A DNA stretch of 64,000 nt from Candidatus Bipolaricaulota bacterium (GTDB taxonomy: Bacteria > Bipolaricaulota > Bipolaricaulia > RBG-16-55-9). Of the stretch, positions 32,479 to 60,625 are shown in pieces (the first letter of the stretch is position 1; each line of letters begins with the position of its first letter). Made by a program: the position numbers and the translations under genes. The notes under the pieces are model-generated. The model saw only the letters and a program-made list of their open reading frames with translations, made no database searches and was not told where the DNA came from. The stretch spans positions 30-64,029 of the forward strand of contig JALSGO010000083.1 in assembly GCA_026982655.1 (NCBI GenBank), written 5' to 3'.

Positions 32479-32502
32479 TTCCCACCCCACCGGGGGTGGG
32501 AA
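32479..32502 (+). promoter_or_regulatory. CsoR-type operator, perfect 10-bp-arm inverted repeat TTCCCACCCC-ACCG-GGGGTGGGAA
   Basis: Read directly; same architecture (CCCACCCC-N4-GGGGTGGG) as characterised CsoR operators; 28 nt upstream of the Rieske gene start. Confidence 0.6.
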
Positions 32503-35923: not shown

Positions 35924-36238
35924 ATGACCGAAGAACTACTGGTGTTGTTACAGCAGGGGAGCCTGGCGGCCCACCCGGAGGCGAAGCGCCACGCCCAGCG
36001 GCTCGTCCGCACCGTCATCGGCCACACCCAGGGCATCGAGCGGATGATCGAGGAAGAGCGATACTGCATCGACATCTTAAAGCAGATCGCCGCGGTGCAG
36101 GGGCTGCTGACCAAGCTGGCCCACACCGTAAGCGAAGCCCACATGAAACACTGCGTGCGACTGGCCATCGAGGAGGGCCACGGCGAGGAGGCCGTTGAAG
36201 AACTGATGGAGACGCTGAAATACCTGCGGAGCGTATAG
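35924..36238 (+). CDS. csoR: CsoR family Cu(I)-sensing transcriptional repressor
   Basis: ~104 aa; Cys (RYC) and H-x3-C (AHMKHC) with C-to-H spacing of 25 as in M. tuberculosis CsoR C36/H61/C65; no N-terminal His cluster (not RcnR). Confidence 0.8.
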   Translation: MTEELLVLLQQGSLAAHPEAKRHAQRLVRTVIGHTQGIERMIEEERYCIDILKQIAAVQGLLTKLAHTVSEAHMKHCVRLAIEEGHGEEAVEELMETLKYLRSV

Positions 36239-36245: not shown

Positions 36246-38663
36246 ATGGGGTGGCTGGACGGCCTGCTGCGCCATCGTGGGCTCGTGCTGGGGGCGGCTT
36301 TGCTGCTCACCGTTCCGGCGCTCCTGTCTCTCAGTCGATTGGAGTCCCAGGACACCTACGATGCTTGGTTCCCCCCGGACGACCCGGCGTATCGCTTCTA
36401 TCGGGAGTTCCAGCGGCGGTTTGAGAACGACATGTTCATCGTGGTGGCCTATCGAGACGAGACCCTCTTCACCCGGGAGGGGCTGGCGTTCCTCGCGGAG
36501 CTCACCGCCCGTCTTGCGGAGCTCCCCTACGTGCGGGAGGTGACCAGCCTCACGAACGTCGAGCACGTCCGGGGGGAAGAGCAGGCGCTCATCGTCGAAC
36601 CCCTCGTCCCCGATCCGGAGCGCCTCGATCCCGACGTCGTCCGGCAACGGGCCCTCTCGCGCCCCCTCTACCGCGGGCTGCTGATCTCCGAGGACGGGAC
36701 GACGACCGCGGTCGTCGCCGAACTCGACCGGATCGCCTCCATGGACGAGGAGGCCGCTCTGGTGGGGGCCCTCAAGGACCTCCTGCGCACGCTGGAGGTC
36801 CGAACGGGCAAGTCCTTCTACATCGGGGGCTATCCCGTCCTCGACGTCGAGATCATGCAGGCTTCCGAGCGGGATATCCGGACGTTCATCCCCTTGACCG
36901 TCGGGGCCATCTTCCTCGTATTGTGGGGGGTCTTCCGCCGACCGTCGCTGGCCGCCCTGGCGTTCGTGTCCGTCTCGCTGGCGCTGGCTTGGACCTTCGG
37001 GCTGTACGCCGGCCTGGGTCTTAAGTACAGCATGATGCTGAGCATCCTGCCCACGATCATCCTCGCCATCGGGATTGCGGATGCGGTACACATCTTGGTC
37101 CACTACTACGAGGAGCTCGCCCGGGGGCGGCCGCAGCGGGAGGCCCTCCGTCAGACCCTACGAAAGATGCTCCGCCCCTGTCTGTTCACGACGCTGACGA
37201 CCGGAGCCGGGTTCATCTCGTTCTTGAGCAGCGATATCCCCGTGGTGCGGCTGACGGGGCTCTTTGCCGCGGTGGGCATCGGGCTTGCGTTCGTGCTCAC
37301 GGTGCTCGTGCTGCCCGCAGCCGTCTCGTTTTTCCGCCCGCCGCACGGGACGGCCCGGCGACGGTCTCAGGGCACGTTCGCTCGGGCCTTGGAGGGGCTG
37401 ACCCGAACGACCCTGGCCCACCCGCGCGCCGTGCTCCTGGGGGCCGGGATCGTGCTCGTCTTCGGCCTGTACGGGATCTCCCGCTTGGAAGCCGAGACGC
37501 TGGGCCTGGAGTGGCTGCGCGACGACCACCCCCTCCAGCAGAGCTATCGCTTCATCGAGGAGAACCTCACCGGGCTGTACAACCTCGAGCTCATCGTCGA
37601 GGGCGAACGGGACGCGCTCCGCTCCCCCGAGATGCTCCGCCGGATCGAGGAACTCAGTGCGTTTGCGCTCCAACAGCCGGGCGTGCGCAAGGCGATCTCC
37701 GTGGTCGACTACGTCAAAGAGATCCACCGGGCGCTCCGCGGGGGAGATCCCCGGTACTACACGATCCCGGACACGGCCCGCGACGTCGCGCAGGCGTTGT
37801 TGCTCTACGAGTTCTCCGGGGGACGCGAGCTGCGCGAGATCGTAAGCGGCGACTACAGCGCCGGACGACTCACCCTGCTGCTGGATGCCCTCTCCAGCCG
37901 GGAGTACACCGAGCTCAACCGACGCATCCTCGAGCGCGCCGAGACGTTGGACTTCCCTCGGCCCGTGCAGGCAACCGGTGCAGTGGTCCTGGTCGAGGCG
38001 ATGCTCAAGAAGCTCACCCTCAGCCAGGTCCGGAGCTTGGGGTTGGCTTTGGCCCTGATCACCTTGCTTATGATCGCCCTGTTGCGCTCCTGGAAGTTGG
38101 GGCTGCTCAGCTTGATCCCCAACGGGCTGCCGATCCTGCTGATGTTTGCGACCATGGGCCTGCTCTCCATCCCCCTGGACGCGGCGACGTCCACGGTCGC
38201 GGGGATGGCTTTAGGGATCGCCGTGGACGACACGATCCACTTCTTGACCCGCTTCCGACGCGAACTGAACGTGACGGGCGACTATCGCCGGGCGCTCACG
38301 CAGACGGCCCGGACGGTCGGCCAGGCGATCGTGTTCACGTCCGTGATCCTGCTGGCCGGCTTCAGCGTGCTGTTGCTGGGCAGCTTCAAGGGAACGGTGT
38401 ATATGGGGTTGCTCGTCGGGCTCACGATGCTCTTCGCGCTCGTAGGGGATTTGGTGCTCCTACCCGCGCTGCTCTGGGTCCTCAAGCCCCTCCCTGTGTC
38501 CGCAGCTGCTTCGACCCCGGCTCCGGCTCCGATGGCGGACGATGGCCGATCAGCTTCCGACCAGAGGAGGTTGAGGGAGGTCATGGACGACGCCCCCCGG
38601 GTGCAGGGTACGCTTATGCGTGGCCGGGACGAGGAAACAGGAGCCCGCGAAGCCGGCAGGTGA
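36246..38663 (+). CDS. RND superfamily transporter, MMPL/HpnN-like (12 TM, two periplasmic loops)
   Basis: 805 aa with duplicated 6-TM bundles and MMPL-type motifs (GIGIADAVHIL..., GIAVDDTIHFLTRF). Confidence 0.8.
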   Translation: MGWLDGLLRHRGLVLGAALLLTVPALLSLSRLESQDTYDAWFPPDDPAYRFYREFQRRFENDMFIVVAYRDETLFTREGLAFLAELTARLAELPYVREVTSLTNVEHVRGEEQALIVEPLVPDPERLDPDVVRQRALSRPLYRGLLISEDGTTTAVVAELDRIASMDEEAALVGALKDLLRTLEVRTGKSFYIGGYPVLDVEIMQASERDIRTFIPLTVGAIFLVLWGVFRRPSLAALAFVSVSLALAWTFGLYAGLGLKYSMMLSILPTIILAIGIADAVHILVHYYEELARGRPQREALRQTLRKMLRPCLFTTLTTGAGFISFLSSDIPVVRLTGLFAAVGIGLAFVLTVLVLPAAVSFFRPPHGTARRRSQGTFARALEGLTRTTLAHPRAVLLGAGIVLVFGLYGISRLEAETLGLEWLRDDHPLQQSYRFIEENLTGLYNLELIVEGERDALRSPEMLRRIEELSAFALQQPGVRKAISVVDYVKEIHRALRGGDPRYYTIPDTARDVAQALLLYEFSGGRELREIVSGDYSAGRLTLLLDALSSREYTELNRRILERAETLDFPRPVQATGAVVLVEAMLKKLTLSQVRSLGLALALITLLMIALLRSWKLGLLSLIPNGLPILLMFATMGLLSIPLDAATSTVAGMALGIAVDDTIHFLTRFRRELNVTGDYRRALTQTARTVGQAIVFTSVILLAGFSVLLLGSFKGTVYMGLLVGLTMLFALVGDLVLLPALLWVLKPLPVSAAASTPAPAPMADDGRSASDQRRLREVMDDAPRVQGTLMRGRDEETGAREAGR

Positions 38664-40000: not shown

Positions 40001-40098
40001 CCGAAGCGCTCGGTTGGGGCCGGGCACGGGGGACGGCCCCCTAATCCCACCCCAGGAGGGAAGGGAAAGGGGAAGCTTCCTGAAGGAAGAAGAAGCCC

Positions 40099-42771
40099 AT
40101 GGCCAAGGTCAAAGACCCCGTCTGCGGGATGGAGATCGACGAGGAAGAGGCCGTCGCCTCCCACGTCTACGAGGGGCAGACGTACTCCTTCTGCTCCAAG
40201 GACTGCGAGAAGGAGTTCGTCGAGAAGCCCGAGTTTTATGTCAAGCCGGAGCCCGCCCGCTCGGCGACCACGGGCGTGGACGTCGAGAGCACGGAGCCGG
40301 TGCACGCCGAGCTCCCCCTGGCGGGCTTGGACTGCACCAGCTGCGTGGTGACCGTCGAGCGCACCCTGCGGGAGGTCCCCGGCGTGGAGAGGGCCCACGT
40401 CAACTTCTCGCTGGGGATCGCGCACGTCACCTACGATCCCAAGGAGGCGAGCGTCGAGGACGCCGTCCAGGCGCTCAAGAAGGCGGGCTACGACGTGGGG
40501 GCCGCCGAGATGCGGGTGCGCATCGAGGGGCTTCGCTGCGCCTCCTGTGTGGGCTTCATCGAGGAGGCCCTGCGGAAGGTCCCCGGCGTCTTGGAGGCCA
40601 CGGTGAGCCCCGGAACGGAGACGGCGGTCATCCGCTACGTCCCCGGGATGGTGAGTTTTCCGGCGATCAAGGAAGCGATCGAATCTACGGGCTACAAAAC
40701 GGTCCACCGCCTGGAGGAGGAGGAGCCGCCCGATCAGGAGGCCGCCGCCCGCGAGCGGGAGTACCGCCTGCTCATGCGCCGCTTCCTCTTCGCCGCCGTC
40801 GTCTCCGTCCCGGTGCTCCTTACGGCCTATCCCGAGTTCGTGCCCTTCTTGAGGGATCTTCCCCGGAGCACGATCCGGCTCATCTGGGCCTTCGACGCGC
40901 TGCTGACGCTGCCCGTGTTGTTGTGGTCGGGTCAGCGCTTCTTCACGGGCGCTTGGGCGGCGTTCAAGCACCACAGCGCGGACATGAACACGCTGATCGC
41001 GCTGGGCACCGGCGCGGCGTGGGCCTATTCGACGGTCGCGATCGCCTTCCCTCAAGTGTTCCCCGAGGGGACGGCGGAGCCCTTCTTCGACGTGGCCGCC
41101 GTGGTCATCGCCTTGGTCGTGTTGGGCCAAGCGCTCGAGGTCCGGGCCAAGGGGCGCACCAGCGCGGCGATCAAAAAGCTTCTCGACTTACAAGCCAAGA
41201 CGGCCCGCGTGGTGCGCGACGGGCAGGAGATGGACATCCCCGTGGAAGAGGTGCTCGTGGGCGACGTGGTGGTGGTCCGCCCCGGCGAGAAGGTGCCTGT
41301 AGACGGCGTGGTGATCGAGGGCTCCTCCGCGGTGGACGAGTCGATGATCACCGGGGAGCCGATCCCCGTGGAAAAAAATCCCGGGGATGAGGTGATCGGC
41401 GGGACGATCAACAAGACGGGGTCCTTCAAGTTCCGGGCGACCAAGGTGGGCAAGGAGACGGCGCTGGCGCAGATCGTCCAGCTCGTACAACAAGCCCAAA
41501 GCACCAAGCCCCCGATCGCCCGGCTGGTGGATGTGGTGAGCGGCTACTTCGTGCCCGCGGTGATGATCATCGCGGTGCTGGCGTTCTTGGTATGGTTTAA
41601 TTTCGGGCCGGAGCCGCGGCTGACCTTCGCCCTGGTGACCGCGGTGACCACGCTGATCATCGCCTGCCCCTGCGCGCTGGGGCTGGCCACCCCCATGAGC
41701 ATCATGGTCGGGGTGGGCAAGGCCGCCGAACACGGGATTCTCATTCGCAACGGCGAGGCCCTCCAAAAGGCCTCGAAGCTGGACACGATCGTGCTCGACA
41801 AGACGGGCACGGTCACCAAGGGGAAGCCCGAGCTGACCGACGTGATCGCCGCTGAGGGCTTTACAGAAGACGAGGTGCTCCGCCTGGCGGCCAGCGCGGA
41901 GCGGGCCAGCGAACACCCCTTGGCCGAGGCGATCGTCCAGGGCGCCCAGGCGCGCGGACTGGAGCTTGCGGACCCCGAGACGTTCAACGCCGTCCCCGGC
42001 CACGGGATCGAAGCCACGCTCGACGGCAAGAGAGTGCTCCTGGGCAACGTAAAACTCATGAAGCGCGAGGGCATCGACGTCGGCGGCCTCCGCGAGGCGG
42101 CGGAGCGCCTCTCCGACGAGGGCAAGACCCCGATGTACATGGCCGTCGACGGCCAAGCCGCGGGGCTGATCGCCGTGGCCGACACGATCAAGGAAGACTC
42201 CGTCGCGGCCATTCGGACGCTCCAGGAGCTGGGGCTGGAGGTCGTCATGCTCACCGGGGACAACCGCCGCACCGCCGAGGCGATCGCCCGCCAGGTCCAC
42301 ATCGACCGGGTCCTGGCCGAAGTGCTCCCGGAGCAGAAGGCGGCAGAGGTGAAGAAGCTGCAGCTCGAGGGCCGCAGGGTCGGCATGGTCGGCGACGGGA
42401 TCAACGACGCGCCCGCCCTGGCCCAGGCCGACGTGGGCTTCGCCATCGGGACGGGGACGGACGTGGCCATTGAAGCTGCGGACATCACGCTCGTGGGCGG
42501 AAGCCTCCGCGGGGTGGTCACCGCCATCGAGATCTCCAAGGCCACCATGCGCAACATCAAGCAAAATCTCGTGGGAGCCTTCATCTACAACACGCTGGGC
42601 ATCCCGGTGGCCGCGGGGGTCTTCTATCCCCTCACGGGGATGCTGCTGAGCCCCCTCATCGCGGGGGCGGCGATGGCGTTTAGCAGCGTGACCGTGGTGA
42701 CGAACGCCAACCGCCTGCGGCGGTTCCGGCCCCGGATCGTCTCCGACTTCGAGGAAGGAGGTACGACATGA
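40099..42771 (+). CDS. copA: Copper-translocating P1B-type ATPase with N-terminal YHS/TRASH domain plus two HMA domains
   Basis: [11 protein letters not shown]...[12 protein letters not shown] (YHS/TRASH); two CxxC HMA domains; [16 protein letters not shown]. Confidence 0.9.
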
Positions 42772-43142
42772 TCGCGCAAATCGTGGTGAACGTCTTGGGG
42801 CTGCTCGCGATCGTCTGGATCGTCTGGTACTTCTGGATCTACGAGAAGAAGGGCGTCGTGGCCGCGGAGGCGGGCGGCGCTCAAGAAGTTCGCATTCGGG
42901 TCAAGGGGGGCTACGACCCCGACGTCATCGTCGTCCAGGCCGGAAAGCCCGTGAAACTCCACTTCTACCGCGAGGAGGAGGCGTCGTGCAGCGAGACGGT
43001 CGTCTTCCCGGACTTCGCCCAGTCGCTGAAGCTTCCGCCCTTTGAGACCGTCACCCTGGAGCTTCTGCCGGAGAAGCCGGGGGAGTACGAGTTCCACTGC
43101 CAGATGAACATGCTGCGGGGCAAGCTCATCGTGGAGGAGTGA
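42768..43142 (+). CDS. Cupredoxin-like domain small membrane protein fused downstream of copA ([10 protein letters not shown] motif)
   Basis: N-terminal TM helix, ~90 aa beta-sandwich region with Cys/His/Met cluster; paralog of 48785-49270; start overlaps copA stop (ATGA). Confidence 0.6.
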
Positions 43143-45304: not shown

Positions 45305-45347
45305 CCTTGCTGGACGTCTTCCGGGGGGAACATGACGCAGATCATTG

Positions 45348-45371
45348 ATCCCACCCCACGGGGGGTGGGAT
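45348..45371 (+). promoter_or_regulatory. CsoR-type operator, perfect inverted repeat ATCCCACCCC-ACGG-GGGGTGGGAT lying between -35 TTGATC and -10 GATAAT
   Basis: Read directly; 18-bp spacer promoter fully occupied by the palindrome; downstream gene is cytochrome b. Confidence 0.65.
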
Positions 45372-45405
45372 AATGGCGGGCGAAAGGCGGGCGAAGGAGG
45401 GACGC

Positions 45406-46491
45406 ATGGAAGCACAGAAGACGGTCATGCAAAGCCGACGGCGACGCCTCTGGGAGGCGCTCGACGAGCGCCTGGGGTTGAGCGCCCTGAGGTACCCCGT
45501 CCCCGCCCACGCCAACACGCTGGGATATATGTTAGGCGGGATCACCCTCTTTGGCTTCCTCATCTTGATCGCCACAGGCATTTATCTTACGCAGTTCTAC
45601 AACCCCGACCCCAGCCAAGCCCACGACAGCGTCGTCTACCTCGTCGAGCAGACGACGTTCGGGGACCTCGTCCGCAGCATCCACTACTGGACGGCCAACT
45701 TGGTGGTCGTCACCGTTCTCCTCCACCTTCTACGGATCTTCTTTGCGGGGGCGTACAAGCGGCCCCGGGAGGCCAACTGGCTGGTCGGCTTGGCGCTTTT
45801 GGCGATCACCATCGGCTTCGTCTTCACCGGCACGGTCCTCAAGTGGGACCAAGAGGCCTACGAGGCGATGCTCCACAACATGGCCTTCTCGGAGCTTCTG
45901 GGCGGGATCGGGAGCTGGTTCTCCCCAAGTTTTACCCTGAGCGTGCCGATGCTCACCCGCCTCTACGCCGTCCACATCGCGGTGCTCCCGGCGCTCTTCC
46001 TCATCTTGATCGCGATTCATCTGATGCTGGTCAAGTACCACGGGATCTCGCCGCTGCCCACCCTGAACGCTCGGGCGGGCACCTGGGGCAAGGAAGGGAC
46101 GGGCCGCTTCTCCGCGCACCTGCGGCGCATGGTGGGCTACGGGCTATGGCTGCTGGCCTTAGCGGGGGTGCTGGCGCTCCTCTGGCCCGCGCCGCTGGGC
46201 TATCCCCCGGTTCCGGGCGCCGAGGTGACGAAGCCCCCGTGGTTGTTCCTGTGGCTCTACGCCTTCGAGAACTGGGTGGGGACCGCCGGGCTGCTCTGGC
46301 CACCGCTTGTGCTCTTCCTGCTGCTGGCGTTGGTGCCCTTCCTCGACCGCAGCCCCTATCTGGCACCCCGAAAGCGACCCGTAACCGTCACGCTCGGCGT
46401 GGTGCTGTTGCTCTTTTTGGTCGGGTTGAGCGTGTACGTGGCCCTCACCCCGCCGGTGAGCCACATCCAAGGGCAAGGGATGGGAGGTTGA
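45406..46491 (+). CDS. Cytochrome b (bc/b6f-complex type; N- and C-terminal domains fused)
   Basis: Helix B/D bis-His pairs (HYWTANLVVVTVLLH; LHNMAF...VHIAVLP), 8 TM helices; GAAGGAGG RBS before ATG 45406 (ORF opens at 45373 inside the promoter). Confidence 0.75.
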   Translation: MEAQKTVMQSRRRRLWEALDERLGLSALRYPVPAHANTLGYMLGGITLFGFLILIATGIYLTQFYNPDPSQAHDSVVYLVEQTTFGDLVRSIHYWTANLVVVTVLLHLLRIFFAGAYKRPREANWLVGLALLAITIGFVFTGTVLKWDQEAYEAMLHNMAFSELLGGIGSWFSPSFTLSVPMLTRLYAVHIAVLPALFLILIAIHLMLVKYHGISPLPTLNARAGTWGKEGTGRFSAHLRRMVGYGLWLLALAGVLALLWPAPLGYPPVPGAEVTKPPWLFLWLYAFENWVGTAGLLWPPLVLFLLLALVPFLDRSPYLAPRKRPVTVTLGVVLLLFLVGLSVYVALTPPVSHIQGQGMGG

Positions 46492-46495
46492 GACC

Positions 46496-47077
46496 ATGCG
46501 ACCACAGAGCAGTTGGGTTCACGTCGGTTGGATCACAGCGTTGCTGACGGTGGCGGTGGGGATCGGGCTTGCGGTGGGGCTTCCGGGACGGGCCCACGAG
46601 GGCGCGGAGGTGAGCGCCTATCCTACCACCGTGGCCCCGGGGGAGACGCTCTTCGTGGAGGGCGCGGACATCAACCCTAACGGCCCGATCGCCCTCTTCT
46701 TGGAGGGCGTAAAGGGCAAGTTCCGCCTGGGTCAGGTCCGGGGGGACGAGGACGGCGGGTTCAAGACGAGCGTGGCCCTCCCGCCGGATCTCCCGCCGGG
46801 GACCTATTTGTTGGTGGCCGTCGGGGCCAACGGGGAGAAGGCCACCTTCTCGGTGACGGTGGCCGCCGCGGTAAGCTCCCTCACCCAAGAGCCCAGGGAG
46901 CCCACGGACGCGCTCATGGAGCTGGACCGGTCAAGGTCCTCCGAGGAGTGGGCGTTCCTCGCCGTCGTGATCGGGCTGAGCCTGCTCCTGGGGGCGTGGC
47001 TGGCCCGCCCGGAACGGATGGTTGCACCTGCCTCTCCTTCTGCCTCCGCCGCCGAGCCCGACGGGAGCGGGCCTTGA
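46496..47077 (+). CDS. Hypothetical periplasmic Ig-like protein with predicted mature N-terminal His and C-terminal TM anchor (possible CopC-like Cu-binding protein)
   Basis: Signal peptide ...GLPGRA|HEGAEV; beta-rich core; C-terminal helix WAFLAVVIGLSLLLGAWLA. Confidence 0.4.
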   Translation: MRPQSSWVHVGWITALLTVAVGIGLAVGLPGRAHEGAEVSAYPTTVAPGETLFVEGADINPNGPIALFLEGVKGKFRLGQVRGDEDGGFKTSVALPPDLPPGTYLLVAVGANGEKATFSVTVAAAVSSLTQEPREPTDALMELDRSRSSEEWAFLAVVIGLSLLLGAWLARPERMVAPASPSASAAEPDGSGP

Positions 47078-47103
47078 GCGCAAAGGGGGCCGAGAGGAAG
47101 GAG

Positions 47104-48309
47104 ATGAGCCGACGGGGGTACGAAGGAGTTTCGGTCGTGGGGGCCGGACCGGCGGGGCTTGTGGCGGCCCTCACGCTGGCCCGCGCAGGCGTCCCCGTCA
47201 CCGTCTACGAGAAGGGGCCGACGGTGGGCACCCGCTTCCACGGCGACTTTCAAGGCTTAGAGAACTGGTCCCGCGAGCTCGACGTCTTGGAGGATCTCCG
47301 GACGATGGGGCTTGCGATCAACTTCGCCGTGCAACCGCGCGACTCAGCGGACTTCTACGACGCCTGGGACCGGAAGTACGACATCAGGACCCGAGAGCCC
47401 CTCTTCTATCTGGTGCGCCGCGGGGGTGGGGAGGGGAGCCTCGACCGCGGGCTCTACGCCCAGGCCCGGGAGGCCGGGGTGCGGTTCCGTTTCCACACCA
47501 AGCTCGATCGGGTGGAGGGCCCGGCGATCGTGGCCACCGGCCCGCGCTACGCCGACGGCATCTGCGTGGGCTACCTCTTCGAGACGGACCTAGAAGACCT
47601 TACGGCCTGCATCCTCTCCCAGCGCCTGGCCCCCCGCGGCTACAGCTACCTCCTGGTGGCCGACGGTCGGGCGACGCTGGTGAGCTGCCACTTCGCCGAC
47701 CTCCCCCGCTGGCGGGATCATCTGGAGGCCACCGTCGAGGCCTTCCGAAAGCTTTACCGCTTTGAGATGCGGAACCCCCGCTTCTTCTCCGGCTACGGGA
47801 ACCTCTTCGCCCGGGGGCGCTTCCGCGACGGCCAAAAACTCTACGTGGGCGAGGCCGCCGGGCTCCAGGACGGCCTGTGGGGCTTCGGGATGCGCTTTGC
47901 CCTGCGCTCGGGATATCTGGCGGCCCAGAGCCTGCTCTCCGGCCAAGACTACGACGAGCTGGTCCGAAGGGAGCTTCTGCCGCACCACCGGGCGGGGCTG
48001 GTCAACCGCTTTTTCTGGAACCTCTTGAGCGATCGCATGTTGGCGTTCTTCCTGCGGCGGGCGGCGCGCTGGACCGACCTTCGGGGGCGGCTGCGCGAGC
48101 TCGCCGGGCCCCGTCCCTGGAAGGATCGGCTCTATCCCTTCATCCGGGGAGCCTGCGGCTGGCGGGCCCGCTACCGCGACGAGCGCTGCCTCCGGGAGGG
48201 GTGTCCCTGCATCGGGTGCGCGTGTCGGAGTCCTTCGCGTACGATCTCGAGCCCCTGCGTCTCTTGGGGAGCGGCTCGGTTCCGACTCGACATGACGCAA
48301 GTCATTTGA
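47104..48309 (+). CDS. FAD-dependent oxidoreductase (geranylgeranyl reductase-like) with Cys-rich C-terminal tail
   Basis: VSVVGAGPAGLVAALTLARAG dinucleotide-binding motif; tail ERCLREGCPCIGCACRS. Confidence 0.65.
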   Translation: MSRRGYEGVSVVGAGPAGLVAALTLARAGVPVTVYEKGPTVGTRFHGDFQGLENWSRELDVLEDLRTMGLAINFAVQPRDSADFYDAWDRKYDIRTREPLFYLVRRGGGEGSLDRGLYAQAREAGVRFRFHTKLDRVEGPAIVATGPRYADGICVGYLFETDLEDLTACILSQRLAPRGYSYLLVADGRATLVSCHFADLPRWRDHLEATVEAFRKLYRFEMRNPRFFSGYGNLFARGRFRDGQKLYVGEAAGLQDGLWGFGMRFALRSGYLAAQSLLSGQDYDELVRRELLPHHRAGLVNRFFWNLLSDRMLAFFLRRAARWTDLRGRLRELAGPRPWKDRLYPFIRGACGWRARYRDERCLREGCPCIGCACRSPSRTISSPCVSWGAARFRLDMTQVI

Positions 48310-48331
48310 CCCACCCCCTCTGGGGTGGAAT
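48309..48331 (+). promoter_or_regulatory. CsoR-type operator (imperfect): ACCCACCCC-CTCT-GGGGTGGAAT between -35 TTGACC and -10 AATAAT (17-bp spacing)
   Basis: Read directly; paralogous to the 45331-45375 module (CATGACGCA..TCATT..CCCACCCC..GGGGTGG.ATAAT). Confidence 0.55.
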
Positions 48332-48342
48332 AATAGAGTGAA

Positions 48343-48669
48343 ATGTCTGCAGAAGCGCGGCGCGGGATCGACAGCAGGTTCCGGGATCTCCTGTCCCTGT
48401 TGCTCATCGGGGTGTTGATCCTGCCGATGGCCGGCCCCTCCGGCCCCTTCACGGAGTCAGGGGCGTGTTCGGGGAACCCGCTTGAGGCGGGATGCGCTGC
48501 GATTCTGCATGTCGCCCGAGGCACGGCCGGTCATTGCCTGCCTTGTGGTGCCGTTGTCCTCCTGAGCTCTCCTCTGCCCTTTGCCTGGGCACTCGTAGGG
48601 GATTGGACTTCCGCCGGACTTGGCAGCCCGTTGGATCCGTCCTTTGTGCCCTGGCGTCCCCCTGCCTGA
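48343..48669 (+). CDS. Small Cys/His-rich membrane protein, probably leaderless (ATG 8 nt after the -10)
   Basis: TM helix LLSLLLIGVLILPMAG then GACSGN...GCAA...HCLPCG cysteine cluster; no SD. Confidence 0.4.
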   Translation: MSAEARRGIDSRFRDLLSLLLIGVLILPMAGPSGPFTESGACSGNPLEAGCAAILHVARGTAGHCLPCGAVVLLSSPLPFAWALVGDWTSAGLGSPLDPSFVPWRPPA

Positions 48670-48784: not shown

Positions 48785-49270
48785 GTGCCAATGCCTAAGA
48801 AGACGAACAAGGATCGGAAGGTCAAGCAGCAGCGTCTACTCCGGCAGGGGGCGGCCGGGGGCTGGCGGCCCTGGGCCTTTGGGGCCGTCACCCTCGGGGT
48901 GCTAACAGCCGCGTTTGGGCTGCTCTTGCCGAAGTTCTTCGCCGACGGTCCCGCAGCGGACGGGGAGGCCAACGTCATCCTGGTCGAAGCGGACATGGCC
49001 GGGCTCTATCCCAAGGAGATCCGGGTCAAGGCCGGGGAGCCCGTGACCATCCGCCTGCGCAGCTTGGACAACCGGTTCCACCTGGACGGGGGAGGCAAGC
49101 ACCAGTTCGCCATCGACGAGCTGGGGGTCAACATCATCGCTCCGCCGCTCGGCACGGCCGAGGCCACCTTCATCCCTACGGAACCGGGTGAATACGAGTT
49201 CTACTGCGACATCTGCTGCGGCGGGCGGGCCAACCCGACCATGGTAGGGAGGCTGATCGTCGAGCTATGA
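48785..49270 (+). CDS. Cupredoxin-like domain protein (EYEFYCDICCGG motif), membrane-anchored
   Basis: Paralog of 42768-43142 (shared PGEYEF-xC motif and beta-sandwich core); GGAGCAGGAGG RBS. Confidence 0.6.
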   Translation: MPMPKKTNKDRKVKQQRLLRQGAAGGWRPWAFGAVTLGVLTAAFGLLLPKFFADGPAADGEANVILVEADMAGLYPKEIRVKAGEPVTIRLRSLDNRFHLDGGGKHQFAIDELGVNIIAPPLGTAEATFIPTEPGEYEFYCDICCGGRANPTMVGRLIVEL

Positions 49271-51227: not shown

Positions 51228-52541
51228 ATGATGGCATCCACAGCCGAACCGGCGGAAACGGAACCCCGACGGGGCGGGGGCCTGGGGAAGAGCCTTCGGG
51301 AGCGCTGGGCGCTCTGGACCCTGGGGCTGTTCGCCCTGCTGATCGTAGGGCTCTTCTTCTTCTACCGCCCGCCCATGGAGGAGAGCATCACGGGGGACAC
51401 CTTCCACCCCATCCGCGGGCTGATCGGCTTCCCCCACGGCCCGGGGGCCGCCGCGGAACCCTACGACGAGGAGGCCCTCGACCGCTTCGTGGAGGAGACG
51501 ATCGCGGAGACCTACGCCAAGGCGCGCATCGATCAGATCAAGCTCCTCCTCATGGGGCTCCTCATCGGCTTGATCCCGCTGGGCTATTACCGCGGTCGGT
51601 CGGACCGCCTAAAGCGCCTGGGACAGCGGGTCAACAAGATCTGGGACCCCTACACCTTCGGCACCGTCTCGGGGCTCCTTTTGGTGGGGGTGATCATCCC
51701 TACGGGGACGGTCCTCGGCCTCTTCTACAGCGCCGACGCGGAGAAGCTCTACGAGAGCATGGCGGGCATCGTGGGGAACCCCATCCTGAGTTTCCTGCGC
51801 AACCTCCACCTCTGGGCCTCGGAGGCGTTCTTGCTCTTCCTGTTCCTGCACACGGCCCGGATCGTCTCCACGCGGGCCTACTTTGCGGGACGCAAGCTCG
51901 TCTGGGTTCTGGGTGTCGTGCTGCTTGTGATCAGCTGGGCGACCTTCCTGATCGGCACCTTCATCCGGGGGGACCAGGAAGCGTTTGAGGCCTGGGTCCA
52001 CATGATGGCCCTCATCCGCTTCATCCCCCTCGTCGGGGACCCGATCGCCGACTTCTTCTCCGGCCCCTTCGCCGTCATGCGGCTGTACGTCTTCCACATC
52101 GTGATCACCACCATCGCCTTGCTGCTGATTCTGGCACCCCACGTGCTGATGCAGAAGGTGTACGTCCACGTGCAGCGGCGCTGGAGGGCGGCCCTTCGCT
52201 ACACCCTGGGGCTTACGGCCCTGATCGCGGTCCTCAGCCTGCTGGTGCCCGCCCCCTTCCTGGCGGAGCCCTACCACGACCTGGAGATCACCAAGCCACC
52301 GTGGCCCTATTACTTCCTGTACGCCTGGGAGAACATCGGCGGCGCGGTGAGCATGATCTGGTCGCCGCTGCTCATCCTGGTGCCGCTGCTTCTGCTGCCG
52401 TACGCGCTGGAGCAGCTGCCACTCGCCCGCCGGACCGCCCAACGGGTGGGCGACTGGGTCTTCTACGGCGGGGTCCTGATCACCTTAGGGCTGAGCTACT
52501 GGGTGGCCGCCTCGGGAATTGTGGCCCACGTCTTCGAATGA
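51228..52541 (+). CDS. Cytochrome b (bc-complex type), second paralog
   Basis: Bis-His helix motifs (NLHLWASEAFLLFLFLH; WVHMMALIRF...FHIVITT), 8-10 TM helices. Confidence 0.7.
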   Translation: MMASTAEPAETEPRRGGGLGKSLRERWALWTLGLFALLIVGLFFFYRPPMEESITGDTFHPIRGLIGFPHGPGAAAEPYDEEALDRFVEETIAETYAKARIDQIKLLLMGLLIGLIPLGYYRGRSDRLKRLGQRVNKIWDPYTFGTVSGLLLVGVIIPTGTVLGLFYSADAEKLYESMAGIVGNPILSFLRNLHLWASEAFLLFLFLHTARIVSTRAYFAGRKLVWVLGVVLLVISWATFLIGTFIRGDQEAFEAWVHMMALIRFIPLVGDPIADFFSGPFAVMRLYVFHIVITTIALLLILAPHVLMQKVYVHVQRRWRAALRYTLGLTALIAVLSLLVPAPFLAEPYHDLEITKPPWPYYFLYAWENIGGAVSMIWSPLLILVPLLLLPYALEQLPLARRTAQRVGDWVFYGGVLITLGLSYWVAASGIVAHVFE

Positions 52542-52590
52542 GGAGGGCCGGACTTGACAACCCTCCCCGGATGGGGTACAGTGAGACCAT

Positions 52591-52613
52591 ATCCCACCCC
52601 AGGTGGGGTGGAT
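52591..52613 (+). promoter_or_regulatory. CsoR-type operator (imperfect): ATCCCACCCC-AGGT-GGGGTGGAT immediately before GATAAG and the MMPL gene start
   Basis: Read directly; TTGACA at 52554-52559 upstream. Confidence 0.5.
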
Positions 52614-52618: not shown

Positions 52619-55573
52619 GTGAAGCGAATGGCCCGAGGGCCGGACTTCCTGATACGTTGGCGCGTGCCGCTGCTGGTCGCCGTCCTGGTGGCCACCGCGC
52701 TCTTGGGCGCGGCGGTCATGGGAGCCAAGCTCAACGCCGACTTCTCCACGTATCTTTCCCAAGACAGCCCGCTCGTCCGGGAGTTCAACCGCGTCGGCGA
52801 GGTCTTCAAGGCCAACTACGTCGGCATGGTCCTCGTCCGGACCGAGGATCTGTTCACCCCCGAGAACCTCAGGCTGCTGGATCGCCTGACCCGAGCGTAT
52901 AAGTCCATCGAGGGCGTCGACTCGGTGACCAGCCTCACCAACGCCGTCGACTTCCGGCGGGCCGACGGCGGCCTGGTTGTGGGAAAACTCCTCGAGGGCA
53001 AGCCCCTCCCGACGGCGCCCGAGGAGCTGGAGAGGTTCAAGCGCTACGTGCTCTCCAAGGAGATGTACGTCGGCGCGTTGGTCAACGCCAAGGGCACCAC
53101 CGCCGTGATCCTGGTGCGCCTGCTTCCCAAGGTGAATCACTTCAAGGTCGCCGGGCAGATCGACCAAGTCACCCAGGAGATCGCGCCCAATGCAGAAAAC
53201 ATCTACTACGGCGGGATGCCCTTCCTCATCTACTCCATGACCGGGCTCATCCTCGACAACCTCTTCTTCCTGGTGCCGCTGATCATCCTGTTGCTCGTGG
53301 GGGTGCTGGAGCTGGGTTTCCGCCGCCTGGGCGGGGTGCTCGCCCCCCTGACCGTGGTGCTGCTCGCCGTGGTCTGGACGATGGGGATCCTGGCGCTCCT
53401 GGGCCGCCCGATCGACCTTCTGACCGGGATCGTCCCCATCATCCTCATCGCGATGGGCTCGGCGGACGGGATCCACTTCATGCGGCGCTTCTACGAGGCG
53501 CGGGCCGCCGGAGCCGAGCGCCGCGAGGCCGTGAAAATCACAATGAGGGAGATGGGCACGCCGATCGTCTTTACGTCCATCACGACCATGATCGGGTTCG
53601 CCTCGCTGGCCATCTCGAACTTCGACATCATCCGGACGTTCGGCTGGGCCACCGCGCTGGGGATCTTCCTGGCGCTGGTCGTCACCCTGATCGTGCTCCC
53701 CGCCGGACTGTCCTTTGGCCGGGAGCGGGCCTCCGTGCCTGCCGAGACGGACAACAGCGGGAGGCCGCGCAGCGTCCGGGGAGGGAGCCGGGCGATGGCC
53801 GCCCTGGGCGGGGGGATCCACCGGCGTCCGGGCGCGATCGCGCTCCTGACGGTGGGGGTGATCGCGCTGGCCGCGGTGGGGATCCCCCGCATCGTGGTGA
53901 ACGTGGACTGGTCGCTCTGTCTGGCACGGGGCAGCAAGCCGTACTTGGCGGAGATGCTGCTGCGCCGGGAGTTCGGCGGCTCCCTGCCCCTGCTCGTGTC
54001 CGTGAAGGGCGACGTCAAGGACCCGGCGACGCTGGAGACGATGCGGGCCGTGGAGCGCCACCTCGACGCGCTGCCCGAGGTGAGCGAGGCCGAGTCGATA
54101 GCGTCGGTGCTGGCGGAGATGAACTGGACGCTCAACGGGCGCTTCGCCGTGCCCACCGAGCGGGCTCAAGTCAACAACTTGTGGTTCCTGCTCCAGGGAC
54201 AAGACGTGCTCGATCAGATGGTCCGCTCGGACAACCAAGAGGCGCTGGTGCAGGCGAAGGTGGCCTCGCTGGGCACGGCGGTGATCAGCCGGGTGGTCGA
54301 GGACGTGAACGCCTTCTTGAGCCGCCTGCCCCAGAAGTTGGTCGTCGTGGACGCCGCCCAAGCGCCCCCGGATGCTCAACAGGCGCTGAGGGAACTCCAA
54401 GCTCAGCAAGTGAAAGAGGCTCTGGCTCAAGACCTGCGGGCCAAAGGCCTTTCGGTTGAACCCGCGGCGCTCGAAGCTGTTGTTGAGGCAGCGCAGAGCT
54501 GGACCCCCGGCGAACCCGACTACGCGGCGCTCGGCGAAGCCATTGAGAAATATTTGCTGAGCCCCGAGTCCGAGGTGCCGTTCGACGACCCTGCACAGGC
54601 CGCGACGATAGCCGAGTCGATCACCACAGCGCTCAGCGAGCGAGGCGGACGGCCATTGAGTGTCTCTGAGTTAGAAGCGTTGCTGCGCCCCCAGGTCGAG
54701 ACGTCCTACCCCGAGGACGTGGCCTGGCTGGCAGAGGCGTTAGTTTATCGCGTCGATGAGTTTTTAGATGCCCGTCGCGTGGAGGCGGCTTACGCGCAGC
54801 TGGCCGCCCAGCTGCCCCCGGAGGCGCGCTCCAACACGGATCTTGCGAAGAAGCTGCGCGGCGACCTTTGGGGGCTGACGACTGCGACGCTGGCGCTCGG
54901 TCCCCAGCAGTACGAGTCCCTGCAGGCCCAATATGGTCTGGACCTCGCGCGGACGGTGACCCTGGCCGCCGAGCCCTCGGGCCTAGCCCCGGTGCTGGAT
55001 CAGATGGAGAAGGAGCTGCTCCCCACCCAGATCGAGAGCACGGCGCTGGCCTTGTTGGCCGTGACGCTCTTGCTGATTTTGGTGTTCCGCTCGCTGCGGG
55101 CGGGGCTTTTGGGGATCGTCCCCGTGGGCCTGACCATTCTGGTCAATTTCGCAGTGTTAGGCTACTTCGGCATCGGCCTGGACTCGTTCACCGCGATGAT
55201 CGCCAGCATCACCATCGGCCTGGGGATCGACTACGCGATCCACTTCACCCACCGCTTCCGGAAGGAGTTCGAGCGCTCCGGCGACGAGCGGACGGCCCTC
55301 ATCACCACGTTGCAGACGACGGGCGTGGCGATCCTCATCAATTCGTTTTCGGTGGGCGCGGGGTTCGCCGTGCTGCTCTTGGCCGGCGGCCAGCACATCC
55401 GGCTCTTGGGAGGCCTTACGGCAATAGCGCTCCTGGTGAGCGCGCTCTTCACCCTGGTCGTGCTCCCGGCGCTCACGCTCTTGTGGAAGCCGCGCTACTT
55501 TCAGACCCCCGTCGTCGTGGAGCCGAAGCTGCGCCCTGAGCCCGAAGCCGAGAGGGGAGTTCAAAGCGCGTGA
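52619..55573 (+). CDS. RND superfamily transporter, MMPL family (984 aa, large periplasmic domains)
   Basis: Duplicated 6-TM bundles, MMPL motifs (GSADGIHFMRRF; GLGIDYAIHFTHRF); real start may be ATG 52628 (leaderless). Confidence 0.8.
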   Translation: MKRMARGPDFLIRWRVPLLVAVLVATALLGAAVMGAKLNADFSTYLSQDSPLVREFNRVGEVFKANYVGMVLVRTEDLFTPENLRLLDRLTRAYKSIEGVDSVTSLTNAVDFRRADGGLVVGKLLEGKPLPTAPEELERFKRYVLSKEMYVGALVNAKGTTAVILVRLLPKVNHFKVAGQIDQVTQEIAPNAENIYYGGMPFLIYSMTGLILDNLFFLVPLIILLLVGVLELGFRRLGGVLAPLTVVLLAVVWTMGILALLGRPIDLLTGIVPIILIAMGSADGIHFMRRFYEARAAGAERREAVKITMREMGTPIVFTSITTMIGFASLAISNFDIIRTFGWATALGIFLALVVTLIVLPAGLSFGRERASVPAETDNSGRPRSVRGGSRAMAALGGGIHRRPGAIALLTVGVIALAAVGIPRIVVNVDWSLCLARGSKPYLAEMLLRREFGGSLPLLVSVKGDVKDPATLETMRAVERHLDALPEVSEAESIASVLAEMNWTLNGRFAVPTERAQVNNLWFLLQGQDVLDQMVRSDNQEALVQAKVASLGTAVISRVVEDVNAFLSRLPQKLVVVDAAQAPPDAQQALRELQAQQVKEALAQDLRAKGLSVEPAALEAVVEAAQSWTPGEPDYAALGEAIEKYLLSPESEVPFDDPAQAATIAESITTALSERGGRPLSVSELEALLRPQVETSYPEDVAWLAEALVYRVDEFLDARRVEAAYAQLAAQLPPEARSNTDLAKKLRGDLWGLTTATLALGPQQYESLQAQYGLDLARTVTLAAEPSGLAPVLDQMEKELLPTQIESTALALLAVTLLLILVFRSLRAGLLGIVPVGLTILVNFAVLGYFGIGLDSFTAMIASITIGLGIDYAIHFTHRFRKEFERSGDERTALITTLQTTGVAILINSFSVGAGFAVLLLAGGQHIRLLGGLTAIALLVSALFTLVVLPALTLLWKPRYFQTPVVVEPKLRPEPEAERGVQSA

Positions 55574-55624
55574 GGAATTTCGTCGGGGAGAGAATATCCC
55601 GTACAATAACAGGAGGTTGTTCCC

Positions 55625-56407
55625 ATGAAGCGTAGTGGAAGTAGAACGAGAACGGTGATCCTCGGACTGACGGTGACGTTGCTCCTGGCGGTCGGCGCTT
55701 GGGCGATCACGGGCGACGAGGTGCTGCAGAGGTCTCAAGAGGCGATGCGGCCCGGCCAGGACGCGACGATCACGGAACGGATGACGATCGCCAAGCCCGA
55801 CGGCCAGACGGACGTGCTGGAGCTCAAGATGTACATGAAGGGGGAGAAGACGCTGATCCGCGTCCTCGCCCCGGAGGACTTCGCGGGCATTGGGCTGTTG
55901 ATCCTGCCCCAGGAGGACGGCGGCGAGGAGATCTGGCTCTATCTTCCGGCCTTCCGGGACGTGAAGCAGATCGTGGCCGAATCCTTGAGCGAGGGCTTCG
56001 TCGGCTCGGACTTCGCCTACGAAGATCTCACGGTGCGCTACACCTCCAAGTGGGACGTGACCTCCATGAGCGAGGAGGAAGGGCAATACGTCCTGACGCT
56101 GGCTCCCAAGCCCGAGGCCCAGCTCAGTTACAGCGGGGCGCGCATGTGGGTGGACCAGGAGACGTTCCTGCCCACGCGGGCGGAGTTCGACCGGGAGGGA
56201 GAGCTGCTCAAGGTGCTGACCCTCTCGGAAGTGCAGGACTTCCCCAGCGTCGCGGACCCCGAGACGAGCTACCCCACCCCGACGCGGATCGAGATGGCCA
56301 ACGTGAAGACGGGGAGCCGGACCCTCATCGAGCTTTTGGAGGTCGAGTACGACACCGGGCTCTCGGACGACTTCTTCACCGTACGCAACCTCAAGCGGGG
56401 CGAATAA
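55625..56407 (+). CDS. LolA-like outer-membrane lipoprotein-sorting family protein (MMPL-associated)
   Basis: Signal peptide, LolA-like half-barrel signature (IWLYLPAFRDVKQI...GSDFAYEDL); paralog of 60626-61486. Confidence 0.65.
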   Translation: MKRSGSRTRTVILGLTVTLLLAVGAWAITGDEVLQRSQEAMRPGQDATITERMTIAKPDGQTDVLELKMYMKGEKTLIRVLAPEDFAGIGLLILPQEDGGEEIWLYLPAFRDVKQIVAESLSEGFVGSDFAYEDLTVRYTSKWDVTSMSEEEGQYVLTLAPKPEAQLSYSGARMWVDQETFLPTRAEFDREGELLKVLTLSEVQDFPSVADPETSYPTPTRIEMANVKTGSRTLIELLEVEYDTGLSDDFFTVRNLKRGE

Positions 56408-58188: not shown

Positions 58189-60585
58189 ATGTCGACGCGA
58201 TCGCTCAAGGAGGAGAATCCCTCGATCATGTACAAGAAATACGTGGAATGGGTGCTGAACCGCCCCAAACTCGTGCTCGCGCTGATCGCGCTGGTGACCC
58301 TGGGGTTCGCCGCGGGGCTCCCGCGCATCCAGACGGACACCGACCCCGAGAACATGCTCCGTCCCGACGCCCCCATCCGCGTCTACAACGACCAGGTCAA
58401 AGCTTGGTTCGACCTCCAAGACGTGCTCGTCTTAGGGATCGTCAACGACCAAGACCCCAACGGGGTCTTGAACGCCCAAACGCTGGGGAAGATCTACCGC
58501 ATCACCCAAGAGATCCTCAAGATCGAGGGCGTCGTCCGCCGCAACGTCTGGAGTTTTCCGACGACCAACCACATCCGGGTGCGGGGAGGCACCCTCGTCC
58601 AAGAGCGTTTGCTCAAGACCGATCGGCCCACGGATGCCGACATCGCCGCGCTCGCCCAGGCCCTCGACGGAAACCCCCTCTTCGAGCGCATTCTCATCTC
58701 GGACGACCGCACGTTGGCCGCCCTCTACATCCCCGTGGAGGACGACGTGGACGCGAAACCCATCACGGATCGCATTCAGGAGATCGTCCAAGCCGAGGGC
58801 GGGCCGGAGGAGTATTACCTCGGCGGACAGCGCGTCGCCGAGGACGTCTTCGGGGTGCTGATGTTCCAACAGATGCTGCTGCTCTCGCCCTTGGTGGCCC
58901 TCGTCATCTGGGTGGGCTTGTGGCTCATGTTTCGAAGGCTGCGCTTTGCGTTTGTCTTCTCCCCCTTGTTGATCGCCTTGGTCTCGGTGATCTGGACGAT
59001 GGGGCTCATGATCTGGCTCGGGATCCCCGTCCACATCATGAGCTCCATGGCCCCCGTGTTTCTGATGAGCATCGGCGTGGTCGACGGGATCCACATCCTC
59101 AGTGAGTTCGTCGATCAGTACCCTAAGAGCCGCAACCGCCGCCGAGCGATCCTCGACACCCTGGTGGCCCTCAAGCGGCCCCTGCTCTACACCTCGCTGA
59201 CCACCGCCGTCGGCTTTGCGTCTTTGTACTTCACGGACATCCCGCCCGTTAGGGTCTTCGGGGTGTTCGTGGCCTTCGGGATCCTGGCCGCCTGGGTGCT
59301 TACGATCACCATGGTCCCGGCGATCGTGATGGTCCTGCGCGAGCAGGATGCCAAGGAGCTCGCTGCCAAGGAGAACCGCCTGGCCCGCGGGCTCCAAGCC
59401 CTGGGACGCTTCAGCATCCGGCGCCGCCGGGCCGTGCTCGTCGGGGGCCTCCTCGCTTTGGCCGTCGCGGGCTTCGGGCTGACTCAAATTCACATCGACG
59501 ACAGCCCCGTCTGGTGGTTCAAGAAGGGCCAGCCCATCCGCGAGGCCACCGCTTTATTGAACGAGAAGCTGGGAGGGACTTCGCTCCTGTATGTCGTGCT
59601 CGAGGGGGAGAAGGGCACGATGAAAGAACCCGAGGTGCTGCGGTACCTCGAGGAACTCCAGCGGTATCTGGAAGAATCCCCGTTGGTGGGCAAGACGACC
59701 TCGCTGGCCGACGTCGTCAAACGCATCAACGAGGCCTGGAACGACGACGATCCTCGGTATCGCGTGATCCCCGACTCCCGCAGGGCCGTAGCTCAGTTCC
59801 TGCTGCTGTACCTCTCCTCGGGGGACCCCAGCGATCTACAAGACTTCGTGACCCATGGCACGGGCTACGACAAGGCCAACGTCATCGTACAGGTGAAGAG
59901 CCCCGGTTCGGCGGCCATGGAGCGGGTCGTAGCACGGGCGCAAGCCTTCGTAGAGGGGAATCCGCCGCCCCGGGGGGTGCGGGTGAGCTTCGCCGGGCCG
60001 GGGTACTTCAATGCGAAGTGGAACGAGGAGATGTTCCGCGGGATGATGCGCGCCGTGGCCGGGGCCACCCTCGTCGTGTGGTTGCTGCTGTCGCTCAACT
60101 TCCGCTCGATGCGTTGGGGGATCGTGGGGCTGCTCCCCTTAGGGTTTACGATCGTGTTCACCTACGGGATGCTGGCTTTGCTGGGGGTGCCCTTCACCAT
60201 GCCCATCGAGGTGATCTCGGCCCTCTCGCTGGGGATGGCCGTGGACTTCGCCATCCACTTCGTCCAACGCTTCCGCGAGCGCTACGCCGAGACTCAAGAC
60301 GTAGAGGGCTCCTTGAGGTGGACCATGGGCGGGCCCGGCGTGGCCATTTTGCGCAACGCCGTCATCCTGTTTGTGGGCTTTACGGTGCTGATCTTCGCGC
60401 CGCTTACGCCGTATATCACCGTGGGGGTCTTTATCGCGATCATCATGGCCCTAAGCTCGCTGACCACGCTCTTCTTCTTGCCCGCGCTCATACGGCAGTT
60501 TGCCCCCTGGCTGGTGGACCGGCCCGCGCGGGCGGCCGTCCCCGCGGCCGCTGAAGTGGAAGCGGAAGTGGAACCGAAAGCCTAA
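58189..60585 (+). CDS. RND superfamily transporter, MMPL family (third copy)
   Basis: 798 aa; motifs GVVDGIHILSEF and GMAVDFAIHFVQRF; 12 TM helices. Confidence 0.8.
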   Translation: MSTRSLKEENPSIMYKKYVEWVLNRPKLVLALIALVTLGFAAGLPRIQTDTDPENMLRPDAPIRVYNDQVKAWFDLQDVLVLGIVNDQDPNGVLNAQTLGKIYRITQEILKIEGVVRRNVWSFPTTNHIRVRGGTLVQERLLKTDRPTDADIAALAQALDGNPLFERILISDDRTLAALYIPVEDDVDAKPITDRIQEIVQAEGGPEEYYLGGQRVAEDVFGVLMFQQMLLLSPLVALVIWVGLWLMFRRLRFAFVFSPLLIALVSVIWTMGLMIWLGIPVHIMSSMAPVFLMSIGVVDGIHILSEFVDQYPKSRNRRRAILDTLVALKRPLLYTSLTTAVGFASLYFTDIPPVRVFGVFVAFGILAAWVLTITMVPAIVMVLREQDAKELAAKENRLARGLQALGRFSIRRRRAVLVGGLLALAVAGFGLTQIHIDDSPVWWFKKGQPIREATALLNEKLGGTSLLYVVLEGEKGTMKEPEVLRYLEELQRYLEESPLVGKTTSLADVVKRINEAWNDDDPRYRVIPDSRRAVAQFLLLYLSSGDPSDLQDFVTHGTGYDKANVIVQVKSPGSAAMERVVARAQAFVEGNPPPRGVRVSFAGPGYFNAKWNEEMFRGMMRAVAGATLVVWLLLSLNFRSMRWGIVGLLPLGFTIVFTYGMLALLGVPFTMPIEVISALSLGMAVDFAIHFVQRFRERYAETQDVEGSLRWTMGGPGVAILRNAVILFVGFTVLIFAPLTPYITVGVFIAIIMALSSLTTLFFLPALIRQFAPWLVDRPARAAVPAAAEVEAEVEPKA

Positions 60586-60625
60586 TGGAGAGATTTTACA
60601 GAACCCCATAGGAGGTTGACCGACC

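Follow-up and report, generated by a model that had tools for sequence, protein, structure and literature searches.

A predicted CsoR-controlled promoter with its operator in the spacer, ahead of a cytochrome b operon in a Candidatus Bipolaricaulota contig

The stretch of 64,000 nucleotides (nt) analysed here, hereafter the window, belongs to contig JALSGO010000083.1 of a Candidatus Bipolaricaulota bacterium (assembly GCA_026982655.1) and carries a promoter-like element at positions 45345-45374, upstream of genes for a cytochrome b, a protein of 193 amino acids (aa) and a flavin adenine dinucleotide (FAD)-dependent oxidoreductase. This element is likely the sigma-70-type promoter of a copper-inducible operon, with an operator for the repressor CsoR placed in the spacer between the -35 and -10 hexamers, where the bound protein would block RNA polymerase. 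The reading is built on the anatomy of the sequence, on an operator core that equals the one in proven CsoR sites, on an intact csoR gene and on the conservation of the whole module in relatives; the transcription start, the binding of CsoR and the response to copper are predicted from these. The mechanism is textbook and the promoter is an instance of a known design. Its novelty is modest and lies in a portable composite module, in a putative second regulator and in the unusual gene set under predicted CsoR control in an uncultured lineage.

Promoter, operator and repressor

The features of the promoter and of the operon behind it are listed in the order of their coordinates.

45332-45345, + strand: palindrome ATGACGCAGATCAT (ATGAY-N4-RTCAT, the upstream box), with one base in common with the -35 hexamer; site for a putative second regulator
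45345-45350, + strand: -35 hexamer TTGATC
45348-45371, + strand: CsoR-type operator ATCCCACCCC-ACGG-GGGGTGGGAT, with its core CCCACCCC-ACGG-GGGGTGGG at 45350-45369
45351-45368, + strand: spacer CCACCCCACGGGGGGTGG, 18 nt
45366-45374, + strand: extended -10, composed of TG (45366-45367, flagged by the promoter scan), G and the hexamer GATAAT (45369-45374)
45380-45382, + strand: predicted transcription start, from the usual distance of 6-8 nt past the -10 hexamer
45393-45400, + strand: Shine-Dalgarno sequence GAAGGAGG, 5 nt before ATG 45406
45406-46491, + strand: cytochrome b gene, 361 aa, first of the operon (PF00033 and PF13631)
46496-47077, + strand: downstream gene of the operon, 193-aa protein without Pfam or NCBIfam match
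47104-48309, + strand: downstream gene of the operon, FAD-dependent oxidoreductase

The hexamers TTGATC and GATAAT and the 18 nt between them, which a first-pass annotation of this DNA had proposed, are read directly from the sequence. A consensus promoter scan scores the pair at 9/12 in addition to the TG at the extended -10 position, which is supplied by the right arm of the operator. Between 38 and 52 kilobases (kb) the scan returned two promoter-like matches against 0.8 expected, the other one being a twin promoter at 48306-48334. In the whole window 11 promoter-like sites were found, and the four that score 10/12 are the hrcA promoter and three operator-associated ones. The sigma-70 model is applicable to the window because it contains an rpoD-like gene (12667-13866) and because promoters of the type TTGACA-17 precede hrcA and the operators designated A and E (see below). 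The distance of 18 nt falls within the 16-18 nt of sigma-70-type promoters, and the hexamers are conserved in orthologous loci. All in-silico lines agree in supporting TTGATC-18-TG-n-GATAAT as a putative promoter of this type, its spacer occupied by a predicted CsoR operator.

The first-pass annotation had described the spacer as a perfect palindrome that exactly fills the distance between the hexamers, a description that holds in part. The two 10-nt arms are perfect, but the 4-nt centre ACGG is not self-complementary, and while the spacer lies wholly inside the palindrome, the latter (45348-45371) extends 3 nt into each of the hexamers. A search for CCCACCCC-N4-GGGGTGGG with at most one mismatch found four sites in the 64 kb (at 32481, 45350, 48310 and 52593) against 0.00 in 100 shuffles, all of them intergenic, on the + strand and adjoining promoter-like hexamers. 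Chance is excluded by this count together with that of the promoter scan. The core is identical to the CsoR site of Mycobacterium tuberculosis, GTAGCCCACCCCCAGTGGGGTGGGATAC (PMC10601412), and to that of Thermus thermophilus HB8 CsoR (TTHA1719), CCCCACCCCACCTGGGGTGGGG (PMC10318464), and the site as a whole has the features of a type 2 CsoR operator, namely a GC-rich pseudopalindrome, C4/G4 tracts and a match to experimentally defined sites.

A csoR gene is encoded in the window at 35924-36238 on the + strand (104 aa; PF02583, E = 6e-24). Residues Cys48, His73 and Cys77 of its product align with Cys36, His61 and Cys65 of M. tuberculosis CsoR (2hh7), the Cu(I) ligands, and the gene thus carries the Cys-His-Cys (C-H-C) set expected of a cognate copper repressor. 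Among solved structures, the closest to it are three copper CsoRs (3aai, 4m1p and 2hh7), with T. thermophilus CsoR at the top (3aai, E = 3e-18). Copper-efflux genes and csoR itself also have the operator ahead of them, as the core at 32481-32500 stands before the genes for a Rieske protein, CopA and CsoR, by which autoregulation of csoR is implied.

In the proposed mechanism, CsoR made from 35924-36238 would sit on 45348-45371 as long as copper is absent, covering parts of both hexamers as well as the extended -10 TG, and the bound apo-protein would exclude RNA polymerase from the promoter and also stop read-through from the upstream genes. For characterised CsoR homologues, two tetramers per operator have been described (PMC3902906). 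Cu(I) bound at Cys48, His73 and Cys77 would lead to the release of CsoR, whereupon transcription would begin near 45381, with ATG 45406 as the first usable start codon. The classic steric-repression architecture named in the first-pass annotation is borne out in silico by an operator equal to proven CsoR sites, a csoR gene with the C-H-C ligands, conservation in a fixed register and an autonomous promoter. That account was incomplete rather than wrong, since it left out both the second palindrome ahead of the -35 and the twin at 48.3 kb.

The start of the cytochrome b gene had been placed at ATG 45406, with GAAGGAGG as its ribosome-binding site, instead of at ATG 45373, and this correction of the gene start stands. 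The two codons are in frame, and the one at 45373-45375 shares the last two bases of the -10 hexamer, so that a transcript beginning at about 45381, as predicted, would exclude it. A public gene call (P0001) of 361 aa with 100% identity corresponds to ATG 45406. In an N-terminal alignment of 12 sequences the methionine of ATG 45406 aligns with one common to four close homologues, and the homologues have nothing that corresponds to the 11 extra residues gained from ATG 45373. An NCBIfam scan of the proteins of the operon gave no match over the curated cut-offs.

In most relatives a gene for a DOMON-domain protein lies between the module promoter and the cytochrome b gene. The window has no such gene (45375-45405), so that the promoter stands directly before cytochrome b, and the related locus L003 (5754-5949) retains an internally deleted remnant that corresponds to residues 1-39 and 178-203 of the DOMON protein of L004.

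Conservation of the module and the upstream palindrome

Homologues of the cytochrome b with 66-86% identity were placed on their contigs independently of the DNA motif, and the module was found to be present in six independent loci (L001/L002, L003, L004, L005, L019 and L020), in most of which it precedes the DOMON gene and then cytochrome b. The locus L016 is too short to judge and is not among the six. A metagenome scan for the upstream box followed by the left operator arm yielded 12 loci, three of which are real modules (L028, L030 and L031, with L030 and L004 being one contig); the remaining ones were discarded as chance matches, the right arm and the -10 being absent. The six loci, the two copies of the window and the metagenome loci L028 and L031 make up ten instances that align without gaps, with the consensus A.ATGA...aG.TCATTga.CCCACCCC...tGGGGTGGgATAAT. 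Their mean pairwise identities differ between the parts of the module as follows.

Left arm: 0.97
ATAAT: 0.96
Right arm: 0.89
-35 zone: 0.77
Upstream box: 0.73
4-nt centre: 0.39, background level
Flanks on both sides: 0.28-0.31, background level

Across the ten instances the -35, both arms and ATAAT keep a fixed register. All ten have A as the second and T as the sixth base of the -10 hexamer, and TTGAY is kept in the -35 of eight, the remaining two reading TTTGA and TTTGC with a shift of 1 nt. Since the upstream genes of L004 and L019 are divergent, the operon there needs a promoter of its own; the module is the sole promoter-like match on the + strand in these intergenic regions.

The design is also encountered at a greater distance. 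A scan for the palindrome followed by ATAAT in one genome per species gave ten loci from many phyla. The combination is directly followed by csoR (PF02583) in a metagenome-assembled genome (MAG) of the Myxococcota (L015) and in another MAG (L013), and by an HMA-domain gene in a Thermoanaerobaculia MAG (L010). The Myxococcota locus reads TTGAC-CCCACCCC-AGGT-GGGGTGG-TATAAT and has the operator in the spacer, as in the window.

A further arrangement is seen at L017 2340-2470 (the same as in L018), where the DOMON and cytochrome b genes are preceded by CCACCCC-N8-GGGGTGG and, some 70 nt further upstream, by a box-like TTGACTAAGATCA; no clear -35 or -10 is visible there.

The palindrome ATGAY-N4-RTCAT that adjoins the -35 is the only part of the promoter that offers something to discover. 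It has two exact matches in the window (45332-45345 and 48292-48305) against 0.04 expected, both adjoining operators, and in the related loci (L001-L005, L019 and L020) it was found only beside the operator, for which reason a wider regulon is not definable. In the ten instances ATGA and TCAT are invariant (10/10) and the inner positions vary. In addition, six relatives (L001, with both copies at 5173-5208, L003, L004, L005, L019 and L020) carry a second copy of the box exactly 22 base pairs (bp) further upstream, which in L001 is the perfect palindrome TGACAATGATCTAGATCATTGTCA. The box most likely binds another dimeric regulator, and the promoter would then probably integrate copper and a second signal.

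As an inverted repeat with a TGA-N6-TCA core the box resembles the sites of CRP and FNR, whose consensus sequences are AAATGTGATCTAGATCACATTT and TTGAT-N4-ATCAA, respectively (as quoted in PMC8465061), a likeness that is no test of the binding protein. In common with class II FNR/CRP promoters it abuts the -35, and it agrees with TTGAT-N4-ATCAA at 8/10 positions. Its predicted centre of about -42 would be close to the class II position near -41.5; the centre at 45338.5 corresponds to -42.5 from the predicted start at 45381 or to -41.5 if the start is 45380. Unlike in those promoters, A and T are swapped in the outer bases (ATGAY, not TTGAT), the -35 itself is well conserved and the second copy lies 22 bp upstream in the relatives. 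When about 60 open reading frames (ORFs) were scanned against Pfam, no CRP/FNR gene was found in the 64-kb window; the only regulators among these ORFs are HrcA, CsoR and a sigma-70, and none of them is a candidate box-binding protein.

A CRP/FNR-like dimer at about -42, in the relatives with a second dimer 22 bp upstream, that acts together with CsoR in the spacer as a two-input device is a possible but tentative reading. If it were true, a respiratory-type module (DOMON, cytochrome b and cupredoxin) would be turned on only when copper stress meets a second signal, possibly redox or oxygen. A CsoR operator combined with the site of a second regulator was not found in the literature searched. 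The CusR/CopR copper box, ATGACAA-NN-TTGTCAT, was set aside as a model for the upstream box, its half-site spacing being off by 2 bp.

Rather unlikely is the alternative that the box is an AT-rich UP-like element, or merely duplicated sequence, and not a regulator site. The box is AT-rich within a genome of 67% GC, its position is typical of UP elements, no candidate regulator gene accompanies it in the window and the two copies there could stem from a recent duplication. However, its conservation is dyad-symmetric, with invariant ATGA and TCAT around variable inner positions, the second copy recurs at exactly the same distance in six relatives and the flanks of the module are at background identity, all of which speaks against this alternative.

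Alternative readings and known CsoR promoters

Several points weigh against a copper-responsive CsoR promoter at 45345-45374. The -35 hexamer matches the consensus at just 4/6 positions, the spacer has 18 nt and the overall score is 9/12. The conservation of ATAAT could partly reflect the AT-rich flank of the operator and not a -10 (GGGATAA is common in other phyla). A terminator scan showed no clear terminator ahead of the promoter, the genes between 32.5 and 52.5 kb are all co-directional, and read-through transcription might feed the cytochrome b operon without this promoter. The layout of L017/L018 differs, with the box some 70 nt from an operator that has a wider centre. Finally, the copper specificity is a prediction from the ligand set and the gene context, and every functional step in this organism is likewise predicted.

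The specificity could be questioned on its own, that is, promoter and operator could be real and the effector of the repressor could be another metal or a persulfide. Sensors of nickel, formaldehyde and persulfide exist in the CsoR/RcnR family, and the best match of the window CsoR in an NCBIfam scan, RicR, stays beneath the family cut-off. This alternative is nevertheless improbable in view of the C-H-C ligands, which are the Cu(I) set, of the three copper CsoRs as the closest solved structures, of a regulon with two CopA-type ATPases (with HMA and YHS domains) and cupredoxins, and of an operator equal to those of copper CsoRs.

The palindrome might also act as RNA, with the hexamers being incidental: transcripts reading through from the upstream HAD hydrolase gene would form a hairpin there that terminates, attenuates or stabilises them. 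Folding of the region does give a stable hairpin (-28.2 kcal/mol, z = -3.3), and no terminator lies between the palindrome and the HAD gene. Yet the stem is followed by AUAAUGGCGGG and no U-run, and it is absent from the terminator scan, so that it does not have the form of an intrinsic terminator. The arms are conserved in sequence and their substitutions are uncompensated (CCCTCCCC in L005, GGGACGGG in L020 and GGGGTGGA in the twin); since the arms hardly vary across the instances, covariation would be uninformative. Moreover, L004 and L019 have no co-directional upstream gene as a source of read-through, and a hairpin leaves the conserved hexamers and their register unexplained. The chance that the palindrome is such an RNA element is slight.

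In MerR/CueR-type promoters the spacer has 19-20 nt, a length that makes them dependent on the activator, and the activator twists the DNA. A site for such an activator, with metal-dependent promoter remodelling in place of repression, is the least credible reading of the palindrome: its dyad has its centre near -22 within the spacer, like those of MerR-family promoters, but the spacers have 18 nt and, in the twin, 17 nt, the Pfam scans of about 60 window ORFs gave no MerR-family match, the same palindrome stands downstream of the -10 at 32481 and 52593, where a MerR mechanism cannot work, and it is identical to proven CsoR sites. What the predicted repressor site of the window shares with MerR/CueR promoters is the dyad between -35 and -10; it differs from them in its 17-18 nt spacer.

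With CsoR as the predicted ligand of the palindrome, the closest known counterpart is the cso promoter of M. tuberculosis, where the identical core is followed by GGGATA, the operator is reported to lie over both -10 and -35 (PMC10318464, PMC10601412) and the repressor is likewise a Cu(I)-sensing C-H-C protein. The steric-repression design is not new, because this overlap had already been reported, as stated for the -10 and -35 of the cso promoter in PMC10318464. The window promoter is unlike it in driving a cytochrome b operon and not csoR with an efflux ATPase, in a site without the outer GTA/TAC flanks and in the second palindrome that abuts the -35; the host also differs, apparently being from an uncultured lineage with relatives among the Bipolaricaulia MAGs. 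CsoR boxes of the type TATACCCCTACCGGGTATA overlap the -10 in Bradyrhizobium liaoningense and Corynebacterium glutamicum, and the repression is released by copper (PMC5057107). They resemble the window in repression through overlap with a core promoter element and in release by copper, and are unlike it in their operator subtype, which has TAC/GTA flanks and G tracts of lesser length, and in that only the -10, and not the whole spacer, is overlapped. The window thus offers a clean conserved example of a CsoR operator of about 20 bp that is fitted, with its AT-rich flanks, between -35 and -10.

Twin promoter and copper island

Further operator-associated promoters of the window, and the small ORF behind the twin, are the following.

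32440-32468, + strand: promoter TTGACA-17-TATCGT; perfect core 32481-32500 downstream of the -10, ahead of Rieske-copA-csoR
48292-48334, + strand: twin promoter, composed of the box ATGACGCAAGTCAT (48292-48305), TTGACC (48306-48311), the core CCCACCCCCTCTGGGGTGGA (48310-48329) and AATAAT (48329-48334)
48343-48669, + strand: small conserved ORF, 108 aa, with the motif CLPCGA...PWRPPA; its ATG lies 8 nt past the -10 of the twin
52554-52582, + strand: promoter TTGACA-17-TACAGT; core 52593-52612, ahead of MMPL and LolA-like genes

The twin (48290-48334 of the window, 45 nt) is 78% identical to the promoter/operator module ahead of cytochrome b (repeat family D2) and has a spacer of 17 nt. The module, from the box to the -10, seems to have undergone duplication in the window as one unit, and in the orthologous locus L031 the same module lies between the FAD oxidoreductase and the small ORF. 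The window has two classes of predicted CsoR-controlled promoter. In the first (operators A and E), a TTGACA-17 promoter is combined with an operator over the predicted start region, roughly from +5 to +26; in the second (operators C, at 45350, and D, in the twin), the spacer holds the operator and the second palindrome is found upstream, a layout that leaves the -40 region free for another protein. Promoters of the first class also occur in relatives (L003 324, L004 5827 and L005 9116).

The twin precedes the small ORF and a cupredoxin gene, and no operator match was seen around its position in the relatives L003 and L004. L028 (reverse strand) has a single module between the HAD gene and the small ORF, which follows it directly, and the segment with cytochrome b, the 193-aa protein and the FAD oxidoreductase that separates the two modules of the window (45305-48342) is absent; this layout is consistent with gain or loss through recombination between repeated modules. 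The small ORF at 48343-48669 has no Shine-Dalgarno sequence and no Pfam or NCBIfam match, and its mRNA may be leaderless or nearly so. The pattern GC..LH..G..G.CLPCGA and the C-terminal PWRPPA are kept in L028 and L031.

The genes around these promoters form a copper island, all on the + strand, in four operator-led units.

Operator A unit: Rieske protein, CopA, CsoR, MMPL, two DUF1573 proteins, CopA with a YHS domain, cupredoxin, beta-CASP hydrolase and HAD hydrolase
Operator C unit (core at 45350): cytochrome b, 193-aa protein and FAD oxidoreductase
Operator D unit (twin): small ORF, cupredoxin, membrane proteins and a second cytochrome b
Operator E unit: MMPL, LolA-like protein, cyclopropane-fatty-acid-synthase-like methyltransferase, YHS protein and a further MMPL/LolA-like pair

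For this Bipolaricaulia-related lineage, the predicted CsoR regulon is thereby widened past efflux pumps to cytochrome b, Rieske protein, cupredoxins, MMPL and LolA-like proteins, which hints that copper stress remodels electron-transfer components. The operator-controlled units hold the Rieske gene at 32531-33181, cytochrome b genes at 45406-46491 and 51228-52541 and cupredoxin genes at 42768-43142 and 48785-49270, which suggests a copper-inducible electron-transfer module beside the efflux pumps.

A degenerate operator-like sequence, CCCACCCCAGGAGGGAAGGG, lies at 40046-40065 before the second copA, with two mismatches in the right arm and without promoter-like hexamers. At the orthologous position L003 has a full TTGACA-17-TATACT promoter with a perfect operator, and the site in the window is probably a decaying relic. 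The window further encodes a Cu/Zn superoxide dismutase at 19637-20518 and, at 10530-12116, a NosD-like protein. Three MMPL-family transporters are encoded at 36246-38663, 52619-56407 and 58189-61486, two of them followed by a gene for a LolA-like protein, and at least one MMPL/LolA-like pair stands behind a CsoR operator, an unusual cargo for a copper regulon.

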